From: Escherichia phage vB_EcoS_ACG-M12
DNA length: 46,054 bases
Strand: one strand, 5' to 3'
Sequence record: NC_019404.1
Shown here: in pieces, positions 3,581 to 36,598 of the stretch
Layout of the letters: each line of letters begins with the position of its first letter
How positions within the stretch are numbered: position 1 is the stretch's first letter
The notes under the pieces: model-generated
The model's input: only the letters and a program-made list of their open reading frames with translations
Database searches by the model: none
What the model was told of the DNA's origin: nothing
Program-made: the position numbers and the translations under genes

Positions 3581-3763
3581 ATGTGGGATGTTAAGTTATC
3601 TATCAGATTAATGGGTCGCAGTTGCAAGAATTGCACTCAAGAGTACATCGCGTCAGTTGCCGCAATCAGCGCTGAGGATGCGGTAGCGAAAGTAAAGGAT
3701 ATGTCGGGCGCTGACCCTGACACCCATAAATTCCTAGTAGCTTACATTCGTGAGCGAAAGTAA
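3581..3763 (+). CDS. hypothetical protein (60 aa)
   Basis: ATG with SD AAGGAG; followed by a terminator. Confidence 0.45.
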   Translation: MWDVKLSIRLMGRSCKNCTQEYIASVAAISAEDAVAKVKDMSGADPDTHKFLVAYIRERK

Positions 3764-18845: not shown

Positions 18846-18911
18846 ATAGCACGAATTGCTAAAGACGATTTAAAAAGATGGGGTATAGTTACCCAATCGA
18901 AACGAGAGGAG
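18845..18911 (+). promoter_or_regulatory. conserved intergenic cassette (AATAGCACGAATTGCTAAA ... GGTATAGTTACC ... CAATCGAAACGAGAGGAG)
   Basis: Box at 18845-18863, TATAGTTAC at 18884-18892. Confidence 0.55.
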
Positions 18912-20091: not shown

Positions 20092-20644
20092 TATTAAGTT
20101 AGGCCTGTCACTAGGTCGTAAGTTTGGAAAGATTCACCAGATGGCAGTGAATAGCGTGCCTGAAGCAATGCGAGCGCTTTGCTCTCAGATCCCTGCTTTC
20201 AAAGAGTTCATGAATAGCCATATAGGGCAAAACGCAAGGTACGCAGTATTTGTAGATGGTAAAAATGTGAACGAGCATCGAATCTCTGATTTTAGTGCCG
20301 TTCAGGAGATACGCATCTTGCCAATCCCGCAAGGCCGAAAGTCAGGCGGTTTGTTTCAAACAATTTTGGGTGCCGCGCTTATCACGGTAGGTATCTTCAC
20401 TGGTCAGATTTATCTTGTCGGCGCTGGCGTTTCCCTAGCTGCTGGTGGTATTGCTCAGCTGTTATCACCGCAAGCAACTGGATTGAAGACTCAGAACAAC
20501 CAAACAAGCAACCGTGCATCATACGCATTCGGATCCGCTGTAAACACAGTGGCCGCTGGATATCCAGTCTGCCTACCATATGGCTATCGAACGGTTGGCG
20601 GCTCGGTGTTTAGTGCTGGCAGCTACGCCGAAGACAATGCTTAA
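20072..20644 (+). CDS. tail assembly protein, lambda I-like (190 aa)
   Basis: Overlaps the K-like 3' end; hydrophobic Gly-rich middle segment; position before the J-like gene. Confidence 0.55.
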   Translation: MTQKLIDIKLGLSLGRKFGKIHQMAVNSVPEAMRALCSQIPAFKEFMNSHIGQNARYAVFVDGKNVNEHRISDFSAVQEIRILPIPQGRKSGGLFQTILGAALITVGIFTGQIYLVGAGVSLAAGGIAQLLSPQATGLKTQNNQTSNRASYAFGSAVNTVAAGYPVCLPYGYRTVGGSVFSAGSYAEDNA

Positions 20645-20651
20645 ATATCAT

Positions 20652-20675
20652 ACCCGCCTAGTGCGGGTTTTTTAT
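20652..20675 (+). terminator. terminator-like hairpin
   Basis: CCCGC-ctagt-GCGGG plus T6. Confidence 0.5.
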
Positions 20676-20724
20676 TTAGTGTAGAATGGCACAAATGATC
20701 AAAACAAACATGAGGCTTTGTGAT

Positions 20725-23700
20725 ATGGCTGAAGAGATTAAGATTTATGGTGCTAAGGGTGGTAGCCAGAAGCAGCACCAACCAGTGGAACAAGAAGACA
20801 ACCTGATTTCATTAAACAAGGTTAAGGTATTACTTGCGGTTGCTGACGGCGAGGTGGATCCAAACTTCTCAATGAAGGATTTATACCTTGCTGACGTTCC
20901 GGTGCAAAACCAGGATGGCAGCTACAACTACGAGGGTGTTCGCGCTGAGTTCCGTGCTGGTACGCAGTATCAGGACTATATCGCTGGCCTTGATGGTGCT
21001 AACTCAGAGATTCAGGCTTCCAGGGAAATCACAAACGACACCCCGTACATCATTGCGGTTAACAATAACCAGCTATCGGCAATTAGAGTCAAACTTTTTT
21101 GGCCTCGGTTGGTTAAGCAAGAAAGTAACGGGGACCTGAACGGAACAACCTGCGAGTATGCGATTGACCTTTCCGTTAATGGTGGAGCATATCAGGAATA
21201 CACTCGCGGAGTTGCTAACGGGAAGACCACTACAGGTTACGACCGCAGCATTCGCGTGAACCTTCCTGCAGAGTTTGATAGCGCATTGGTTCGCATCCGT
21301 AAGATTACAGCAGATTCAACAAGTAGCACGCTGGTTAACGGAATGCAGATTACAACCTATCAGGAAGTAATCGACGCTAAATTCCGCTATCCGCTTACGG
21401 CACTTGTTTATGTTGAGTTCGGCTCTGACTTGTTCCCTAACGGCATCCCGACAATCTCAATCAAGAAGCGATGGAAGTTAATTCAGGTCCCAACGAACTA
21501 TGATCCTGAGACTAGAACCTACAGCGGCACGTGGAATGGACTGTTCAAGATGGCATGTTCAAACAACCCGGCGTGGGTTCTCTATGACTTAGTGACAAAC
21601 CGCCGATATGGTCTTGATCAGCGAGAGCTTGGTGTAGGGATTGATAAATGGGGACTGTATGAAGCTGCGCAATTCTGCGACCAGATGGTGCCGGATGGTA
21701 AGGGTGGAATGGAACCGCGATATCTATGCGACATGGTTGTACAGAACAAGGTTGAGGCCTACACACTAATTCGTGACATTTGCTCAATCTTTCGTGGACT
21801 GACTTTCTATGATGGCGAAAAGATTGGTATCGTGGTTGATAAGCCTCGCAATCCATCTTACATCTTCACTAATGATAACGTTGTAAACGGATTATTCAGC
21901 CGCACTTTTGCCAGCGATAAAAGCCTTTACACTACGGCAAACGTTCAGTTTGATGATGTGGAGAACAACTATCAGCAGGATGTTGAGCCAGTATTTGAGC
22001 TCGAGGCTACTCGCCGATTTGGTTTTAACCCGGTCGACCTAACGGCAATTGGATGTACGCGAAGAAGTGAAGCAAACAGACGCGGAAGATGGCTACTGAA
22101 AACCAACCTGAGAAGCGAAACTATCAGCTTCACTACCGGGTTGGAAGGCATGATTCCGATGATTGGTGAGGTTATTGCGGTTAATGACGCTGCATGGTCG
22201 AGCAACTACCAGTTAAACCTTTCCGGTCGTATTGAATCAGTTCAGGGATTGCAGGTTTTCACCCCGTTCAAAGTTGACGCGGCACCGGGTGACAGAATTC
22301 TTCTGAACAAGCCTGACGGAAGCCCGGAAGCAAGAACTATCGCCAGCGTTTCGGAAGATGGTAGAACTATCAACCTGAATACTGCTTTTAGTTTTGTAGC
22401 TCAGCCTGACACTGTATTCGCAATCGATAAGGATAATCTGGCGCTTCAGCAGTATGTTGTGACCGGGATTCAAAAAGCAGATTCTGATGGTTCGGATTCA
22501 TTCCAGTATACGATTACCGCGGTGGAGTATGACCCGAACAAGTATGACGAGATTGACTACGGCGTTAACATTGTTGACCGTCCAACTTCAATTGTGGAAC
22601 CTGACAGATTATCGCCACCAGAAAACCTGACCGTGTCAAGTTATAGTAAGGTTGTTCAGGGCTTGTCGGTTGAGACGATGGTTATCGGATGGGATAAGGC
22701 TCCATACGCTAAAACCTACAATGTTCAATGGAGGAAAGAAAATGGTAACTGGATTAACGTACCCAGAACAGCAAGTACAGATGTTGATATCGAAGGTATT
22801 TACGCAGGAATCTATGACGTTAGGGTTCGCAGCGTATCAGATACTGAAAACGTGTCTGCCTGGTCTGACATTGTAACTGTATCACTAACTGGCAAGATTG
22901 GACGTCCTTCGGCACCTACGGTTATCACGGCGTCAACTGATGAGGTATTTGGCATCCGTGTTAAATGGGGATTCCCTGATAGCTCTGGTGATACTGCTTA
23001 CACTGAGCTTCAGCAGGTTCCTGATAATGGCGATGGTACTTACAATCCTGATAACGCAAGCTTGCTGACGTTGCTGCCTTATCCAGCCTATGAATACTGG
23101 CATACGCCTATTCAGCCAGGTAAGGTTATCTGGTATCGCGCAAGATTGATTGACAGGATCGGAAACACCTCTGATTGGTCTGATTTCGCTAGAGGCATGA
23201 GTACTGACGACGCCAACATTATCAATGATTACATCAAGGTTGATATAGAGGGTTCGGAAGGATTCAAATACCTCGAGCAGAATGCGATTCAAAAGAATCA
23301 TGACATTCAGAATCAGGCAGAGTCAATTCTTGAGAATGCATTAGCTAATGATGCCGATGTTCGCCGGATGACCAAGGAGAACGGCAAACGTAAGGCTGAA
23401 TATGTTCAGACGGTGAATCTCATAGCCGATGAAACTCAGGCACGCGTAGAGGCTCTCACCGCACTTAAAGCGCAGATAGATGATGAAGTTGTAGCATCGA
23501 TTACGAAAGTTCAGACAGCGCTAGCTACCGAGACAGAAGCAAGGACCACCGCAGACACGGCTCTATCAGCAAGACTCGGTGATAACGAGGCGGCGATAAA
23601 CCAGAAATTAGACGCATTTTCCAATGCCACCTCAACTGGCGTGCAGTACGGAATTAGTCTTGGCCTGAAATACAATGGTCAGACTTATTCATCCGGCATG

Positions 23701-25753: not shown

Positions 25754-26050
25754 GGTTACGCGTAACCGATGTAACTCGATGTATACCATATCCATCCGCG
25801 GGAAATCAGTTACGCCATATTGCGCACAGTTACGCTTTAGTTACACTAAAATATCTATATATATAAAGGGTTTAGATAATTATTATTATTATCTATATAT
25901 ATAGTGTAACTGCTGCAACTCATAATATTGGTATGTTGCGTTTGTTTTTCTATATGATGATTATCTTTGTTATCTGGCGTGGCTAAATGGATGTAGGGTG
26001 TGGTGCACCACATAAAAGATACCGTTACATTGGTTACATGTGAGTTACAT
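25754..26050. repeat. GTTAC/GTAAC iteron cluster with 14-bp perfect palindrome GGTTACGCGTAACC (25754-25767) and (TTA)n run (about 25878-25891)
   Basis: Direct repeats CAGTTACGC at 25808 and 25827; further GTTAC copies at 25839, 25906, 26023, 26033, 26045; divergent intergenic region. Confidence 0.6.
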
Positions 26051-26177
26051 TGAGGATTTATGCGGTCTGCGGTGGCTAAAAACGTAACAAAGGAGAGCCT
26101 ATACATGAAATTACGTCATTTGACGCGTAATCATAATTTATTAATCGGTGATATCTATTGGACTGCGCTGCCACCCT

Positions 26178-29257: not shown

Positions 29258-32074
29258 CGAAGCTGTATTTACCTGAAGATATGCACCATTAGTTGCACCA
29301 AACCATGCGTAAGCAGATCCGTAAGTTGTTGGGTTGTCATTTAAAATGAAATCACCCGCTCTAATTACGCACTTTGCTCCATATGTATCAGTGGGTCTTG
29401 CACTAAACCCATAGTCAACATATCTAAAACCAACCTTCGTTACGTTATCGTTAAGCGGGAAGATCCTTAAGAAGCTGGAATCTCTAAAGTCATTGTTCCT
29501 GAAAATTCCTCCTGTAAAGTTATCCATATCAAACATTGTTGTTAAACTTGAAGCAACAGTATTCATGAACTTGTTGCCTTCATATGTCGGAGCTACTACT
29601 TCATAGCCAACTCTTAGCTGAACAAATCCCCCATCAATAATATTGTCCTTGACTATTGGATATTGCCCGCCGATTGCTAAGCCACCAAACCCAGGTGTAA
29701 ATTTGCAACTATTATTACTAAATATAGTGCCAACCCACGCCTGATTTGTAAGGTATGGTGCCTTAGTGTCTGTCATGGTGTTCCCGGTGATAATCAATCC
29801 ATTCTTGGCCTGGATTCCCTCCTGGTAGCCCTGAATCGCTACGCCGCCACCAATCATAATGTTGCTGGATATAATAATGTTGCTCAACCCCTCATTAACA
29901 CCCCAATCACTTTCTGCATCATTTGTTATCAGTAAGTAGTGAGAAGAAGCCCTGCCAGTAGCGTCCGTAGTTATAATGCTTGTATTGCCTTTGCATATAA
30001 CATTGTTTGCCGCAAAAACCTCAACAAACATACCAGCACCTTCGTAGTAGTTATCCGTAACCGTTACGTTATTGCCAGCCGGGGTTATCCTTGACTGGAT
30101 AGATATTGGATAATAGAACTTGTTGGCGTGAGCGTAAGACCTTCGGCTTCCCTCGGATATTGCATAATCCTCCGCGAAAGTATGCCATGCCCTTCCTGAC
30201 TGTTTTGTTGTGTTTCCTATAAACTCTGAGTAGTCACAGTTTCTTGTGATTAAGCAGTAGTTAGCGTTGTATCTGAAGCTTGAATTTCTAAGAGATACGA
30301 ATGCATTAGGTAAGCCATTAAGAGCATCGGCATTAACAAAGGCCCTCGAGGCATTAACCTCCATACCCTCGATCACAACTGATGCGCATCCTTCAACCAT
30401 AAAACCAAACCAGTCTTCTCTTGGTTTATGCTCTGTATCCGTTGGTTGGATTGAGTAATCTGAAAAGTCAGTATTCCAGTTGAGTCCGCTAGCTTTAAAT
30501 GTGCAATATTTAAGCCCGAAAACAACCCTCTCGGGTGATGTGCTTCCAGAGATATCAATATCAACATCATTATTGGCAAAAATGTCAACAGTAAGTCCAT
30601 TGAGGAAGAATGCCGTTTGCCTTAACACTCTGTACTTATCATTGTACTGAACACCATCGGAGAATGAGACTTTCAGTCTTCCAGCGCTAATTCTTACCTT
30701 CCTGTTTGTATTGTGACCAAGGTTTATACATGCCATAACCGAGGCGTTTGATTCATTAACTCCAGACACATCATGACCAGCCCATTCGGTATGGATATCA
30801 TCAACACCTCCCGTAAACCTAACCCAGCAACCATTTTTACCTGGTGATGTCTCACCCGCTCCGCTAAGGAATCCTGGGAGCGTGGAATATGTACCATCAA
30901 ATGGAACTGTTGGGCTAAAGATGGTAACCCCATTGTGACTACTCTTGCTTACTGATGGATCCCAGTAAAACAAACCACCTCCAGAGTTTGCTCCAGAAAT
31001 ATAAGACCTGACATTTGCCAAGTTTCCATTCGTAGTTGGTTGCCGGATTAGTTCATAAATTGAATTAACTGAAGATAGCCCTAAATTACTCCTGGCAAGG
31101 CTTTTATCTTCAATATCAGAGAAATTCAATGATTTGTTGAAAGTCTCAGATTTTGAATAAACATCAAGTAAGCCCCTTACTCGCTGGGCGCTAGCTCCGC
31201 CAACCTGACTTCCTGATGCGACATAAAGCGCCTCTCTTGAATAGTAAGTTTTGCTTGGTGCCGTGCCAGTCTGAGTTAAATCAATCACCCTGTACGCATT
31301 ATCTGAGCCGGTAGATGCTGAAACTTGTATGTTCTTAACACCAGTAAGCCCCCTTGCTGACTTAACCTCAATCGTACAAAGTGTGCTATCGGAGTAGGTT
31401 GTATTTATCACCTCTGGAGCGTTGATCATTGCTGACTTTTGGCATAGGTATCTAGCCCCGGACTTGAAATCAAACGTATTCCAGTCAAGTTCTGTCAACT
31501 GAGGTGTATTCGAGCCACCAATACCAATATTGGCAAGAGTTACCAAAGTACCAGCGTCACCAGCATTATTAATTGCTGCAATTGTAGCGTCACGGGCAGC
31601 TGTTGTTGTGTTTCTTGCACTAACAGCAGTAGCAGCGCTATCTGCGGCGGCAATCTGGCTAGCTAAAGCATCCGCTGCTCCTTGCACTGACTGGCTTGCC
31701 AATTGCTCAAAGCGAGGCCAATCAAAAGAATCCTGACCAATGAAATCAATCAGGCTCTGAATGCTAGTTTCCCTACTCTGATAATAACGAAGTGTCTCCG
31801 CTACATTTTGAGCCAAACCCTGAACGCTAATCCCATCATGAGCAAGAATGGCATATCCAGTACCAGCAGGAACAGTTTCGCCATTTGGGTTATATACAGA
31901 CAATGAAGTGTCGCTGGTGATTTCAGAGATGGTGTAAATCTGCACAGGCTCTGTTTTGAATACAATTGTAGCACCAACACGGATTAGCGTTAGTGGCATG
32001 GTCCATTGAGTGCCAACACCAGTAACTTGACCGTTAGCTGCTAAACTGGCAGTTCCAGTATCATAAATTGCCAT
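29255..32074 (-). CDS. tail fibre/receptor-binding protein, possibly with a beta-helix domain (939 aa)
   Basis: N-terminus MAIYDTGTASLAANGQVTGVGTQW typical of fibre N-termini; Ala-rich shaft; Asn/Gly/Thr-rich C-terminal two-thirds; start at the ATG after GGAG. Confidence 0.6.
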   Translation of the reverse strand: MAIYDTGTASLAANGQVTGVGTQWTMPLTLIRVGATIVFKTEPVQIYTISEITSDTSLSVYNPNGETVPAGTGYAILAHDGISVQGLAQNVAETLRYYQSRETSIQSLIDFIGQDSFDWPRFEQLASQSVQGAADALASQIAAADSAATAVSARNTTTAARDATIAAINNAGDAGTLVTLANIGIGGSNTPQLTELDWNTFDFKSGARYLCQKSAMINAPEVINTTYSDSTLCTIEVKSARGLTGVKNIQVSASTGSDNAYRVIDLTQTGTAPSKTYYSREALYVASGSQVGGASAQRVRGLLDVYSKSETFNKSLNFSDIEDKSLARSNLGLSSVNSIYELIRQPTTNGNLANVRSYISGANSGGGLFYWDPSVSKSSHNGVTIFSPTVPFDGTYSTLPGFLSGAGETSPGKNGCWVRFTGGVDDIHTEWAGHDVSGVNESNASVMACINLGHNTNRKVRISAGRLKVSFSDGVQYNDKYRVLRQTAFFLNGLTVDIFANNDVDIDISGSTSPERVVFGLKYCTFKASGLNWNTDFSDYSIQPTDTEHKPREDWFGFMVEGCASVVIEGMEVNASRAFVNADALNGLPNAFVSLRNSSFRYNANYCLITRNCDYSEFIGNTTKQSGRAWHTFAEDYAISEGSRRSYAHANKFYYPISIQSRITPAGNNVTVTDNYYEGAGMFVEVFAANNVICKGNTSIITTDATGRASSHYLLITNDAESDWGVNEGLSNIIISSNIMIGGGVAIQGYQEGIQAKNGLIITGNTMTDTKAPYLTNQAWVGTIFSNNSCKFTPGFGGLAIGGQYPIVKDNIIDGGFVQLRVGYEVVAPTYEGNKFMNTVASSLTTMFDMDNFTGGIFRNNDFRDSSFLRIFPLNDNVTKVGFRYVDYGFSARPTDTYGAKCVIRAGDFILNDNPTTYGSAYAWFGATNGAYLQVNTAS

Positions 32075-32096
32075 TATGTAAAGTCTCCATTTGTAA

Positions 32097-32115
32097 AATA
32101 GCACGAATTGCTAAA
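32097..32115. promoter_or_regulatory. isolated dyad box AATAGCACGAATTGCTAAA at the 5' end of the tail fibre gene, without a downstream -10 or leader
   Basis: Only copy not followed by a TATAGTTAC box and leader; lies between a TACAAT-like element and the SD of the minus-strand fibre gene. Confidence 0.4.
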
Positions 32116-32140
32116 GTGGATTGTAGCATCTTTAGGGCAT

Positions 32141-32162
32141 AAAAAAACCTCCCGAAGGAGGT
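32141..32162 (-). terminator. rho-independent terminator for the minus-strand primase transcript
   Basis: Reverse complement reads ACCTCC-ttcg-GGAGGT plus T7. Confidence 0.65.
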
Positions 32163-33088
32163 TAGTTATTCAATAAATCACTTGCCTTATATATCTTCTT
32201 CCTTATTCCGCTCTTGAATGAGTTTTCATCATTTGGTATTACCACATCAAGATTGCGATCATCAGCAACGGCGAGTAAATCAAAATCATGACGAGTACAA
32301 GCGACGCGTAACTTGTAGTCTCTAAGCGCATAAGCAACCATTTCCATGTTGTAACTGGAGTAGCAAACAAGCACACACCGGTTGCCAGTAGCAAGATGAA
32401 CGCGAACACCATCAATCCAATTATCGACCAGATAAGAGTACTCATCATCCTTAAGGGAACCAATAACAGAAACAGATTGGCGAGAATAATCTTTTGCAGC
32501 ATAACTAACATCTCCTTCCTCATTGATAAACATTACATTGCACATTTCTTCTGATATACCGTCACTATAAGCCATGAAGCACGGTATTGCGTGTATTAAT
32601 TCACCGGATTTTGTCCTACCAACATCAAATCCAAACTCGCTATAAATACCCTCGTATGTACTTAGCGGGGTTGATTCTACTCTTTCCGTCCTTTCCAGTA
32701 TCTCTAAGCATCTTTCGTGGTCAATCTGCGCGCCCATCTTGTATGGTGATGTCCTCGATGCTCTTTTGTTTGCTTTAGCTACTATCTCAACTGGAACCAG
32801 ATTTAACCAGTCACCTAATACATTTATACACTCACTAAAAGACTCTCCTCTTAGTTTCTGCACCCACAAAATTCCATCGCCTGACCCACACTGGTTGCAA
32901 ATGATTCCACCATCCCCAGGTTCACTAACTTTATCAGTCCACCTGCTACGGTCATTACCGCCACAATACAAGCATGGTTGATGCTTCTTAGTTTTAAAGA
33001 AGTTTGGGTCTGCCCCGCAAATCTGAACCATTGCGTCAGCCCATAAACCTTTCATCTTTTGTAGTACTTCTTTCTTATCGTGATTCAT
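32162..33088 (-). CDS. DNA primase-like protein with N-terminal zinc-binding motif (308 aa)
   Basis: CLYCGG-x17-CNQCG zinc ribbon near the N-terminus; start at the ATG 5 nt after GGAGG. Confidence 0.45.
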   Translation of the reverse strand: MNHDKKEVLQKMKGLWADAMVQICGADPNFFKTKKHQPCLYCGGNDRSRWTDKVSEPGDGGIICNQCGSGDGILWVQKLRGESFSECINVLGDWLNLVPVEIVAKANKRASRTSPYKMGAQIDHERCLEILERTERVESTPLSTYEGIYSEFGFDVGRTKSGELIHAIPCFMAYSDGISEEMCNVMFINEEGDVSYAAKDYSRQSVSVIGSLKDDEYSYLVDNWIDGVRVHLATGNRCVLVCYSSYNMEMVAYALRDYKLRVACTRHDFDLLAVADDRNLDVVIPNDENSFKSGIRKKIYKASDLLNN

Positions 33089-33143
33089 ATGCACCTCCAT
33101 AAACAATAAAGGCACCATACATAATGTAGAGTGCCAATGTTTA

Positions 33144-33650
33144 TCAAATCGTGCTTTTTTTCTCTGCTTCTCTCTTTTTCTTATTCTCTTCTTTAATCTT
33201 ACGCCATGATCTGGCAGGCGGCTTTGTTGCTAACTCCTCTTTCTTAACAACTCTAAGCATTTCTCGACGGTCACAACGCAATGTTAAAGGCTTACCATTA
33301 CTATCAAATCGAAGGTCTGGACGAATGAAGCTAGCTCGATAACCCTCGCCTGTACGCTTGTACTTACCGTGTAATTTCTGCGCACCTTTAGCTGAAATCA
33401 TTCCGCGTTTACACCATTCAGAAACTACTGCATGTGTCACATTAGCGGCTTTTGCTAGCTTCGATTTACCACCATAAAAATCAAGTACAATCTCAAGTCG
33501 GGCGCGTAAACTAGCTCTCACCTCATCCTTCAAAGTGTAGTAGCCATAAGGTCGACTACGTTCTTTCTTGTCTTCACCGCGATGAGTTCCGTTATTACCA
33601 TTTAATGTGCGCTTGTCTACTTCACCAGTTGATGCCGCAATTCTCGTCAT
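33144..33650 (-). CDS. HTH DNA-binding protein with basic C-terminal tail (168 aa)
   Basis: LAKAANVTHAVVSEWCKRGMISAKGAQKL helix-turn-helix-like segment; Lys/Glu-rich tail; divergent from the helicase gene. Confidence 0.45.
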   Translation of the reverse strand: MTRIAASTGEVDKRTLNGNNGTHRGEDKKERSRPYGYYTLKDEVRASLRARLEIVLDFYGGKSKLAKAANVTHAVVSEWCKRGMISAKGAQKLHGKYKRTGEGYRASFIRPDLRFDSNGKPLTLRCDRREMLRVVKKEELATKPPARSWRKIKEENKKKREAEKKSTI

Positions 33651-33661
33651 TATCAATCTCC

Positions 33662-33750
33662 AATAGCACTTTTTGTTAAAAGTCGTTTTGATTTAGTGTT
33701 AGTATTGTACTCAACAAAACGCCACAACACAAATTAATAGGGCTTAACAA
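33662..33750 (+). promoter_or_regulatory. conserved intergenic cassette (AATAGCACTTTTTGTTAAA variant) in a divergent promoter region
   Basis: Box at 33662-33680; TAGTAT-like -10; precedes the helicase ATG at 33751. Confidence 0.45.
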
Positions 33751-35745
33751 ATGCTTCCCGTAGAAAAACTCGTTGCTAACTTTGATAAGAGTCGCCTTGC
33801 AGAGATTAAGCGTGATTACTCATTTGGTGAGATAACTCCTTACGACTTTCAATGCGTGACATTTGATGCAATTGGTAAAGCAATTGGCAAGTACGAAGCT
33901 CCATTTATCGCAGACCTTTCTGTATCTGCAGGTAAGACAATCATCTTGGCGATGATTGGTAAGAGAATGGAGCAACTCGGCCTTCCTTATATGGTTCTTT
34001 CTCGCCAGTCAGAGATAGTTAGCCAGGATAGCGAGGAGCTTCGTAACTTCGGTATCCGTAATAGCGTATATTGCGCTGGCCTTAACGTTAAATCAGTTTA
34101 CTACCCAACCATAGTGGCAAGCGAAGGAACGGCAGCTAATGGGTTGTTTAAGGGACTTGGTGACTATGTTCCGGCAGTTATCGCTATAGACGAGTGCCAC
34201 ATGGTGGATCACATGGATATAGTCGAAGCAGAAGAGAACGAAGAAACGTTTGAGCAAATGAGCACCGCAAAAGGTGAGATGGTTTTCAAGGATGGTGAGT
34301 ATACTGGCTTAACTGGTACAGGTCGTTCGCAATACACTTTAATCATTACAGAGATGAAACGGCGTTGCCGTGAGAAATACAAGCGCGAACTACGCATCTT
34401 CGGTCTTACTGGTAGCCCGTATCGCGATAACAATCATATCGTGGTAAGCAACCAAAATATTCGAGGATTTTGGCGTAAGACGGTTATGCAGGTTCCAACT
34501 AATTACCTGGTGGATTTAGGGTTTGTTGTCCCAACCGTTTACGGTGAGGTTGGTGATTTGGGTTATGACCTTGCTGAGTTTACGCCAGATGGTTCTGATG
34601 GGGTTAAAGACTTCACGAAGAAAGACCTGAATGCAATGGAGGAGAAGATTCACCAAAGCCAATCTATGACACAAAAGATTATGCAGTTCGCAGCTAAGTT
34701 TATGGAGACGAGGAACGCAGCACTTGTTACCTGTTCCGGTAAGCGTCATTGCGAAGAAGCAGCCGCCGCTCTTCCTGAAGGTGTAACATGGGCTATAGTA
34801 ACCAACTCAACAGGCGAGAAGAAACGCCGTGAGATTCTAGCTGACGCATCTGAGGGTAAGTATAAATTCATCTTTCAGATTGGTTGCTTAACGACCGGTG
34901 TCAATGTCCCACCGTGGGACACATCAATAATTCTCCGTAAGGTTGGCAGCATTACATTGCTTATTCAGCTTTTGGGTCGTGGCATGCGCATCCTGAAGAG
35001 GAAACATAAAGAGATGGGAATGGTTAAAGATGACCATGTGGTATTGGACTTCGCAGGCACGCTTGATGATATGGCTGAGTTGTACTTTGACCCAATCATA
35101 GAGGAGGTTCAAGACCAGAAATTCAAGTCTTCTCGTAAAGGTGGTGATGATCCAAGAGTGTGCCCAGCATGTAGCTATGAGAACTCGCCATTTGCTCGTC
35201 GTTGTAATAATTTTATCGACGGTAAAAGGTGTGAGCACTTCTTTCAGTTTCGTACTTGTGATGACATTGAAGACCCACAGACAAAGGTTATATTAAAGAA
35301 GGGGTGTGGCGAGAAGAACGACATTGCTGCCAAAAACTGTAGATGTTGTGGTGAGATGTTAATTGACCCTAATGCAAAACTTTCCGGCAAGATGTACCGT
35401 CAGGGGGATTGGTTGCGAGTTTACGGATTTGGCATTGGTTTAACAAAGAATCAAACTGGCATAGTTGCCCGTTACGAAATCATGGCGCATAGTGGTCAGA
35501 AGTTCATTGCATATGAAACATTCTTTCCAGAAAGTGACCATCGAGTTTGCTCTGTTAAGTGGAAAGCATTTTGCCAGACTCACATACAGAACAAAACAGA
35601 GGCTTTTAGGATTGGTCGCTTGCGTAATGCGAAAATGATAATGACAAATGCCAGCCAGTTCCGTGAGCCAATGCGAGTGACTCATAGAAGAAATCAGAAA
35701 GGCCGGGATATTATAGCTAATAAATCTTTTACTATGGAGGATTGA
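33751..35745 (+). CDS. SF2 DNA helicase with C-terminal Cys-rich zinc-ribbon region (664 aa)
   Basis: Walker A SVSAGKT, DExH box IAIDECHMV, motif VI-like QLLGRGMR; multiple CxxC pairs at the C-terminus. Confidence 0.7.
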   Translation: MLPVEKLVANFDKSRLAEIKRDYSFGEITPYDFQCVTFDAIGKAIGKYEAPFIADLSVSAGKTIILAMIGKRMEQLGLPYMVLSRQSEIVSQDSEELRNFGIRNSVYCAGLNVKSVYYPTIVASEGTAANGLFKGLGDYVPAVIAIDECHMVDHMDIVEAEENEETFEQMSTAKGEMVFKDGEYTGLTGTGRSQYTLIITEMKRRCREKYKRELRIFGLTGSPYRDNNHIVVSNQNIRGFWRKTVMQVPTNYLVDLGFVVPTVYGEVGDLGYDLAEFTPDGSDGVKDFTKKDLNAMEEKIHQSQSMTQKIMQFAAKFMETRNAALVTCSGKRHCEEAAAALPEGVTWAIVTNSTGEKKRREILADASEGKYKFIFQIGCLTTGVNVPPWDTSIILRKVGSITLLIQLLGRGMRILKRKHKEMGMVKDDHVVLDFAGTLDDMAELYFDPIIEEVQDQKFKSSRKGGDDPRVCPACSYENSPFARRCNNFIDGKRCEHFFQFRTCDDIEDPQTKVILKKGCGEKNDIAAKNCRCCGEMLIDPNAKLSGKMYRQGDWLRVYGFGIGLTKNQTGIVARYEIMAHSGQKFIAYETFFPESDHRVCSVKWKAFCQTHIQNKTEAFRIGRLRNAKMIMTNASQFREPMRVTHRRNQKGRDIIANKSFTMED

Positions 35746-35746
35746 A

Positions 35747-36166
35747 ATGAAGATTACAGATAAAGAAGATTACATTGAGTTTTACCCGGGTGCTGTAAAA
35801 TCATGTCCAAAGGAGGATGACGAACAAATCTTTTGCTCTGATTGGGTTAAGTACCATTATCCGCAGATTGTTTACTGGCACACGATTAATGAAAATAAGA
35901 AGACCATAGGGCAAGCAAGAAAAGACCAGGCGAAAGGACTCCTTAAGGGCGTATCAGACTGCTTATTCCTGATACCTGAATCAATGCGAGGCAAATACCC
36001 TTTTGGAGCCATAGAGCTAAAGAGGGCAGGAAAAACTCAAGCAAGCCCTGTCAGCGATGAACAAAAGGTTTTCTTAAAAAGCGTAAGGGAATCAGGCGGT
36101 TTCTCTGCTGTAGCCTACGGTCGCGAAGGTTTTCTTGCAGCATTCAAAGAAATGATTTCAAAATAG
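35747..36166 (+). CDS. VRR-NUC domain nuclease (139 aa)
   Basis: D...E-x-K arrangement (SDCLF...GAIELKRAGKTQ...Q) characteristic of VRR-NUC as recalled; coupled to the helicase. Confidence 0.5.
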   Translation: MKITDKEDYIEFYPGAVKSCPKEDDEQIFCSDWVKYHYPQIVYWHTINENKKTIGQARKDQAKGLLKGVSDCLFLIPESMRGKYPFGAIELKRAGKTQASPVSDEQKVFLKSVRESGGFSAVAYGREGFLAAFKEMISK

Positions 36167-36242
36167 CACGAATTGCTAAAGAAGATTTTAAAGGATGGGG
36201 TATAGTTACTCCATCGAAACGAAACGCAGAGAGAGAAACAAA
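36162..36242 (+). promoter_or_regulatory. conserved intergenic cassette (AATAGCACGAATTGCTAAA ... GGTATAGTTACTCCATCGAAACGAAACG)
   Basis: Box overlaps the stop TAG of the VRR-NUC gene; TATAGTTAC at 36201-36209. Confidence 0.55.
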
Positions 36243-36440
36243 ATGGCTACTATCTATACAGGAATCAACTACGAGTCACGCAAAACTGGTTACATCTACG
36301 AGCTAGTCGTTACTGAAGATGGTTACATTCTCGAGGATATCGACGACTCAAATTACGCATTCGAAGTTACCCCAACATACAAAGATGATTTAGAAACTGT
36401 TAAAAACGCATTTGGCGAAAAATTTGATGAGGTATCATAA
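36243..36440 (+). CDS. hypothetical small protein (65 aa)
   Basis: In-frame ATG after AGAGAGAGAAACAAA (track start is upstream, inside the cassette). Confidence 0.4.
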   Translation: MATIYTGINYESRKTGYIYELVVTEDGYILEDIDDSNYAFEVTPTYKDDLETVKNAFGEKFDEVS

Positions 36441-36598
36441 TGAGAGAGGCAATCGTAAACTGGAAAACCGGAGAAGATTCAAAGTTCTTCTTCAATACAT
36501 TCTCACAATATATTGACAAGTTTGTTTTCGTGATTGATGGTGGATGTGAGGTTGTTGTTCCAATTAATCTGGTTGATGTATTGGAGGTATCAGAATAA
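36440..36598 (+). CDS. hypothetical small protein (52 aa)
   Basis: TAATG overlaps at both ends; below the track cutoff. Confidence 0.35.
   Translation: MREAIVNWKTGEDSKFFFNTFSQYIDKFVFVIDGGCEVVVPINLVDVLEVSE

Follow-up and report, generated by a model that had tools for sequence, protein, structure and literature searches.

T1 is a classic phage whose transcription has, to our knowledge, never been explained, and our searches of the literature on T1-like transcription and on the HTH regulator considered here found nothing experimental. The nearest described systems to this protein are the all-alpha Cro proteins (P22 Cro, Xfaso-1 Cro and N15 Cro) and the DicC/YdaS prophage regulators. Parallels are also offered by Mor and C of phage Mu and other phage middle or late activators, in which a small phage HTH protein acts at about -43 on a sigma-70 promoter with a -10 and no -35, and by lambda O, SPP1 G38P and the C-terminal domain of P4 alpha, which are iteron-binding origin proteins coded beside helicase or primase genes. 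On the host side, class II marbox promoters are described as having a forward site that overlaps the -35 position, no recognisable -35 and a canonical -10. The site is centred at about -36 to -55, with a peak near -41 (about -41 in micF), and the consensus for MarA, SoxS, Rob and RamA is 5'-gcannwwntgnnaaa-3' (PMC12052159). The repeat that concerns us was presented in the 2024 re-annotation of phage TLS as aaATAGCACnnnTTGnTAAAA, with 18 intergenic copies (an 18-21-copy repeat) and no function assigned; stoperators, enhancer sites or UP elements were suggested, no binding factor was named, the HTH gene was not discussed, just three sigma-70-like promoters were found and TLS was said to have no iterons (PMC11447400).

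We analyzed a stretch of 46,054 bp, hereafter the window. Megablast showed that it is 99.6% identical over positions 32000-36500 to Escherichia virus ECH1 (MN164484.2; Drexlerviridae, Braunvirinae, Guelphvirus), and both sequences are 46,054 bp long, differing by 4,196 substitutions with no net indels. From this equal length we conclude that the window holds the complete genome of a T1-like phage. The substitutions were unevenly spread, i.e., the region from 32 to 36.5 kb was near-identical and the divergence lay elsewhere, a mosaic pattern. The ECH1 annotation was used as gene map, with local frame differences from the window in places. The window was compared with 80 IMG/VR loci, with three distant contigs drawn from public assemblies and with T1; the non-redundant subset of these contained 27 T1-like lineages with 196 copies of the dyad box described below.

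The HTH gene (33144-33650, negative strand) codes for a protein of 168 aa and is preceded, as read from the sequence, by the Shine-Dalgarno motif GGAG (33658-33661), 7 nt upstream of the ATG at 33650. Its counterpart in the near-identical ECH1 record, ECH1_50, is annotated as 'putative transcriptional regulator'. The protein matched PHROG 2856 near its full length (E 5.4e-80, residues 2-163 against positions 2-164 of a 165-position profile), and tblastn found homologues in 827 phage records, essentially all of them T1-like. In an exhaustive profile search, full-length matches were limited to about 16 clusters, every one of them T1-like, and the other hits were generic Cro-like proteins of 80 aa; a Pseudoalteromonas H40/1 hit considered as a distant homologue turned out to be a generic Cro. 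The gene diverges from a gene for an SF2 helicase (33751-35745, positive strand) and is followed downstream by that of a zinc-ribbon primase (32162-33088, negative strand), and the order helicase, divergent HTH gene, primase was kept even in distant relatives. In T1-like phages the HTH gene belongs to the core of the replication module. The initial annotation had picked out its product as a DNA-binding candidate at a divergent promoter, and the gene, the HTH and the divergence from the helicase gene at 33751 (+) all proved real; it had also called this the only clear small DNA-binding protein besides the HNH endonucleases, which held at the Pfam level, as scans of 40 further window proteins, small or unknown, detected no other DNA-binding domain. 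Taken by itself, this is an ordinary, previously annotated regulator, and its surroundings supply most of the interest.

The protein has an all-alpha five-helix HTH fold of the Cro/CI type. Residues 55-90 scored 24.2, 23.5 and 17.7 bits with the Pfam models P22_Cro, YdaS_toxin and Phage_CI_repr, below the respective gathering cut-offs of 30, 30.2 and 22, and the match to NCBIfam DicC was likewise weak (21.9 bits for a cut-off of 130). We regard it as a putative phage-specific DNA-binding protein of Cro/DicC type, whose five-helix core (residues about 42-100) is flanked on the N-terminal side by a basic arm (residues 10-41, DKRTLNGNNGT.RG.DKK.R.RP.GYY; codons 33528-33623, negative strand) and on the C-terminal side by an extension, both conserved. 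The arm, of some 40 residues, and the extension, of some 35, are additions relative to the solved Cro structures; moreover, unlike the Cro, DicC and YdaS regulators, the protein is found in virulent phages without a repressor partner, and no operator was identified beside its gene. The most variable segment of the family is the putative DNA-reading head, helix 2-turn-helix 3 (residues 62-82; codons 33405-33467, negative strand). Among the 27 lineages the entropy was 1.8 bits in helices 2 and 3, compared with 0.81 in the N-terminal arm and 1.0 in the C-terminal extension, and most positions of the two helices presented 5-9 different residues. Contigs L002, L003 and L004 had unrelated helices 3 (NPLEYREMIRIG, KRHRVARWVEKG and NGLRMVLWKQKG) and the same box. 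Since the DNA-reading helices differ between clades, the target of the protein should be clade-specific.

The basic tail pointed out in the initial annotation (residues 136-168; with the stop codon, 33144-33245, negative strand) is real in this genome, with 13 K/R, but it is lineage-specific: many homologues stop near residue 136 (...MLRVVK) and lack it. Not being conserved, the tail cannot serve as the recognition device of the family. The final codons (KKSTI) and the stop of the ORF are coded by the box of the primase promoter itself (33140-33157), and the CDS in ECH1 stops earlier, ending at 33159, which suggests that the end of the tail was shaped by the promoter and not by protein function.

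The dyad box, ATAGCAC-N3-TTGnTAAA, had 17 exact copies in the window as compared with 0.008 expected for a pattern of 12 specified bases. Nearly all the copies were intergenic and oriented toward the downstream gene, with a -10-like hexamer (TATAGT, TATAAT and similar) 21-23 nt after the box and then a conserved leader, CATCGAAACGA. The 196 boxes of the 27 non-redundant lineages gave the consensus aAATAGCACtaaTTGcTAAAa, and the box was invariant across these lineages. Reading the box as an ordinary sigma-70 promoter with TTGCTA as -35 was rejected, because the -10 lay 21-23 nt past TTGnTA in 165 of the 196 boxes and no -10-like hexamer was present at 16-18 nt. Canonical sigma-70 promoters were not commoner in the genome than in shuffled sequences, and of the matches at 10 of 12 positions none was intergenic except one, which is linked to a box. 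Compared with the sites of Lrp, IHF, Fis, sigma-32 and MotA, the box shows partial matches or a wrong spacing, and these factors were set aside. The leader motif CCATCGAAACGA(GA) occurred 7-20 nt downstream of the -10 in most box promoters, e.g., at 18895-18905 and 36212-36222; it could play a role as initial transcribed sequence, in translation or in stability.

The box fits the marbox consensus GCAnnWWnTGnnAAA at every specified base. The window contained 19 exact matches to this consensus where dinucleotide shuffles gave 1.33; for T1 the corresponding figures were 20 and 1.2. When the -10 hexamer was taken as -12 to -7, so that transcription starts are predicted ones, 15 of the marboxes in the window were centred at -39 to -41. 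On these predicted starts the box promoters display class II geometry: a forward site centred near -40/-41, a good -10 and no -35. The bases GCAC and AAA are fixed and the dyad partner base is free, a pattern that fits a monomer with two different HTH motifs and not a symmetric dimer. In addition, the window box agreed at 15 of 20 positions with the reverse complement of GATTTAGCAAAACGTGGCAT, the marRAB marbox located upstream of E. coli marR. No MarA-like protein encoded in the window was found with tblastn (best E 1.0). From sequence and geometry, MarA, SoxS or Rob probably bind the box. The box has the sequence of a consensus class II marbox and is most likely read by MarA, SoxS or Rob of the host (RamA in Klebsiella and Salmonella); these activators would bring sigma-70 RNA polymerase to some 17-20 promoters of the phage that have a -10 but no -35. 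The class II mar/sox/rob promoters of micF, lpxC P2, lpxL P1 and rfaY P1 share with the box promoters the 15-base consensus, the orientation, the centre, the -10 and the lack of a -35. They differ in that host sites are degenerate whereas the phage copies are nearly all perfect consensus, and in that the phage boxes are predicted to drive most of the transcription units of the phage. What appears to be new here is this likeness of the T1-family promoter repeat to a host marbox, a link absent from the TLS paper (PMC11447400) and from the literature that we searched. The box or marbox positions were 1306, 2116, 2747, 5966, 13125, 17152, 18846, 27584, 33663, 36163, 37204, 39122, 39691 and 40779 in the positive strand, and 25435, 25752, 33157, 44247, 44831 and 46013 in the negative strand.

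A pattern scan of viral contigs revealed complete box promoters outside the Drexlerviridae. The T4-like phage Lw1 (176 kb; NC_021344.2) had five of them, each with box, spacer, TATAGTTAC and CCATCGAAACGA, and the genes downstream were not homologues of T1 genes; the same promoter type was present in RB16, RB43 and Miller. No homologue of the HTH protein was detected in the whole Lw1 genome (best tblastn E 1.8; hmmsearch empty at E<=10). The Hungariovirus podovirus C130_2 (NC_048067.1), which combines P22-like virion genes with T1-like primase, helicase and recombination genes, had seven complete box promoters; its primase and helicase genes diverge from each other without any intervening gene, and no HTH homologue was found in its complete genome. 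The boxes of Lw1 and C130_2 thus indicate that this promoter type works, or at least persists, without the HTH protein. The boxes of Lw1 lie at 10295-, 10911-, 56166+, 91967- and 92339-, and those of C130_2 at 3760+, 4736+, 37099+, 34813-, 13857-, 10710- and 1345-. In several copies of Lw1, a Pseudotevenvirus, an inserted terminator hairpin separates the box from the -10, recalling the mobile promoter-stem-loop cassettes of T4-type phages, and CCATCGAAACGA(GA) also occurs in promoters that have no box. Translation of an annotation 'gap' in C130_2 (20479-20730) yields an XRE-type HTH peptide (...ISEATGIAERQLSRYENQHETPSLATLVKVAGALGV...) that is missing from the annotation and has no relation to the T1 family.

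The HTH and helicase genes share a 100-bp spacer that holds one copy of the box (33663-33680, positive strand; marbox 15-mer at 33666-33680), so the dyad box that had been placed at this divergent promoter is indeed there. It belongs to the helicase promoter; in the negative-strand reading it forms part of the HTH gene's 5' leader, directly upstream of the ribosome-binding site of that gene. Overlapping -10 elements occupy 33700-33709 in both strands: TAGTAT/TATTGT (+) would serve the helicase gene, and TACAAT (33709-33704, negative strand) is the candidate -10 of the HTH gene. Relatives mostly have TATAAT where the window has TACAAT, and the two elements overlap base for base in the window and in 20-odd relatives. 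The primase promoter has its own box (33140-33157, negative strand), with one mismatch to the 18-mer and an exact match to the marbox consensus; it overlaps the last HTH codons and the stop codon (33146-33144), and its -10, TATGGT, is 22 nt downstream. The HTH gene itself has no forward box and is among the few such units. We infer that the HTH and helicase promoters are interlocked, one being box-independent and the other box-dependent, and that the HTH gene would be transcribed from the box-less promoter with TACAAT as -10. Since the HTH promoter would have the base pairs of this -10 in common with the marbox-dependent promoter of the helicase gene, there would be competition between the two. 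Within the 100-bp control region no GTTAC was found, and no motif of the spacer besides the box recurred elsewhere. Note that the few box-less units also include the operon at 26060, the tail-fibre gene and gene 1; the last of these (528, DUF7174) has a sigma-70-like promoter, TTGTCT-17-TATAGT at 457-485, followed by the usual downstream module.

The GTTAC sites form a class separate from the box, consisting of RGTTACR clusters in direct and inverted orientation that flank AT-rich tracts. Cluster A (139-400) and cluster B (25754-26050) are both non-coding and resemble each other: the tract is of the (TTA)n/(TA)n type, and each has a perfect palindrome, GTTACATGTAAC of 12 bp at 139-150 and GGTTACGCGTAACC of 14 bp at 25754-25767, which we regard simply as candidate dimer operators. 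The repeat core was GTTAC(A) in the clade of the window, in L009, L010, L011 and L018 and in T1; most other clades had GAAACA, GGAACA or AACAA, and ATAACA was present in L020 and partly in L062. The iteron cores GTTACA, GAAACA, GGAACA and ATAACA, although variable between clades, have a common 3' ACA. A clade-variable family of sites suits a protein with a clade-variable head, and C130_2, a single lineage, has neither a comparable AT-rich iteron region nor the HTH gene. On this sequence evidence, reading of GTTAC-type sites by the HTH protein is a possibility that we would not yet call probable. No residue-to-site code between the head and the iteron type was found. The GTTACA core is common to T1 (helix 3 SNQTVQGW) and the window (THAVVSEW) despite their different heads, and the very different heads THQTIQQW and NLKTVWGW accompany similar AACA-type repeats. 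The GTTAC regions are at least 7.6 kb from the HTH gene.

We know of no origin mapped in any T1-like phage. The iterons around an AT-rich tract, together with the location of the HTH gene between those of primase and helicase, mean that the GTTAC regions could be origins; an equally good reading is that they are groups of early promoters and operators, given that GTTACA scores as a -35, too. GC skew, tried as an indicator of the origin, merely tracked gene orientation. The similarities to lambda O, SPP1 G38P and P4 alpha are the location of the HTH gene in a replication module, the presence elsewhere in the genome of iteron-like repeats around an AT-rich tract, and the change of these repeats among related phages; in contrast to those systems, the iterons are neither in nor next to the HTH gene. 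The HTH protein showed no similarity of sequence or fold to known initiators (lambda O, DnaA, the Rep winged helix, SPP1 G38P and P4 alpha). In clades of the AACA type, some repeats in the AT-rich regions of L019, L056 and L061 read TGTGAACA(A); this resembles the DnaA box (TGTGGATAA) as well as, in the reverse strand, the ori repeat of P4 (TGTTCACC), and is offered as a lead only.

Several roles can be considered for the ORF at 33144-33650. That it is not a functional gene deserves next to no credence: the sub-threshold Pfam scores are all that speaks for it, against 827 homologous loci, the kept synteny, a good ribosome-binding site, a confident fold and the presence of both constrained and free segments. 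A more substantial alternative, close to one of the two site classes proposed in the initial annotation, is that the HTH protein is a phage activator which binds as a dimer on the box at about -41 and switches on all the box promoters. The core TAGCA-N5-TGCTA is a partial dyad whose 10-bp half-site spacing fits an HTH dimer; the HTH gene, having no forward box, could be expressed first; its product was the sole Pfam-detectable DNA-binding protein among those scanned; and protein and box co-occurred in all the Drexlerviridae examined. The scheme of a small phage HTH protein acting on a sigma-70 promoter with a -10 and no -35 would be that of Mu Mor/C, but the fold here is Cro-like and not Mor/C-like, and the tests of co-occurrence and covariation fail. 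The box is invariant and the recognition helix hypervariable, so their pairing is not credible. The conservation of the box is also asymmetric, ATAGCAC being invariant while the position of TTGnTAAA that would pair with its G is free; Lw1 and C130_2 have box promoters although no homologue of the protein was found in either; and the sequence of the box is that of the marbox consensus of the host. We consider it very unlikely that the HTH protein reads the box, and that part of the initial annotation is not supported.

The protein might instead act locally, as a Cro-like autoregulator that controls the interlocked HTH and helicase promoters through sequences other than the box and tunes the ratio of helicase, primase and HTH protein itself. 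The divergent layout of regulator and target is typical of autoregulators, and a candidate site exists in a 7-bp inverted repeat around the shared -10, CGTTTTG...CAAAACG; a shared -10 with flanking inverted repeats is present both in the window and in T1 (CGTTTAC...GTAAACG), and the sequence from the box to the -10 is variable between clades, like the head. However, a simple dimer could not span the 27-31 bp that separate the centres of the two arms; the inverted repeat was not seen in several clades; one arm is just the leader motif that all box promoters have in common; and, the box apart, the spacer holds no motif that recurs elsewhere. An autoregulator of this kind seems unlikely to us. 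We are also inclined to discount a replication accessory acting mainly through protein contacts, e.g., by loading or coupling the SF2 helicase and the primase, in which the HTH would bind DNA with little sequence specificity and the N-terminal arm and C-terminal extension would be the functional surfaces. It would account for the strict synteny with helicase and primase, for the greatest conservation lying in arm and extension while the head varies freely, and for the lack of a convincing specific target, but C130_2 retains homologous primase and helicase without the HTH protein, and the Cro fold usually binds specific operators. The best combined explanation, which we put forward tentatively, is that of a Cro/DicC-type protein of the replication module which is not the reader of the box, has the GTTAC sites as best candidate target, and coexists with a box that is a marbox. 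The protein would bind the RGTTACR sites that flank the AT-rich tracts of the non-coding stretches 139-400 and 25754-26050, the best available candidates, and would there control box-less early transcription and/or the initiation of replication together with the neighbouring primase and helicase. A fuller version, a two-tier circuit with the host Rob, MarA and SoxS (RamA in Klebsiella) running almost the whole programme through class II marboxes and the HTH protein serving the marbox-less units and the GTTAC/AT-rich regions, is doubtful at present. Small early proteins without Pfam hits could also be the true readers of either class of sites.

With the only phage HTH protein removed as reader of the repeat, and the repeat recognised as a marbox, transcription of T1 becomes directly testable. 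The role of the HTH protein is narrowed to a clade-specific control in the replication or early module, and defined DNA fragments are indicated. If the phage depends on MarA, SoxS or Rob, the efficiency of infection would be tied to the stress and antibiotic-resistance states of the host; such a dependence, if true, would matter for many T1-like therapy phages of Klebsiella and E. coli.

A consensus box in the wrong strand was located at 32098-32115 (+), between the primase and tail-fibre genes, both of which are in the negative strand. A bidirectional terminator of the primase gene (32146-32163) follows directly after it and there is no usable -10; L002, a distant contig, has kept this arrangement, with its box at about 5091. 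An extended -10 in the negative strand, TGCTACAAT (32131-32123), would send transcription into this reversed box, which may be a repressing site. Finally, the starts annotated in ECH1 at window positions 1329, 25724 and 36195 are each 5-14 nt after a box, inside the promoter, and therefore the true starts of these three genes are probably further downstream, e.g., at MATIY within the ORF annotated from 36195.
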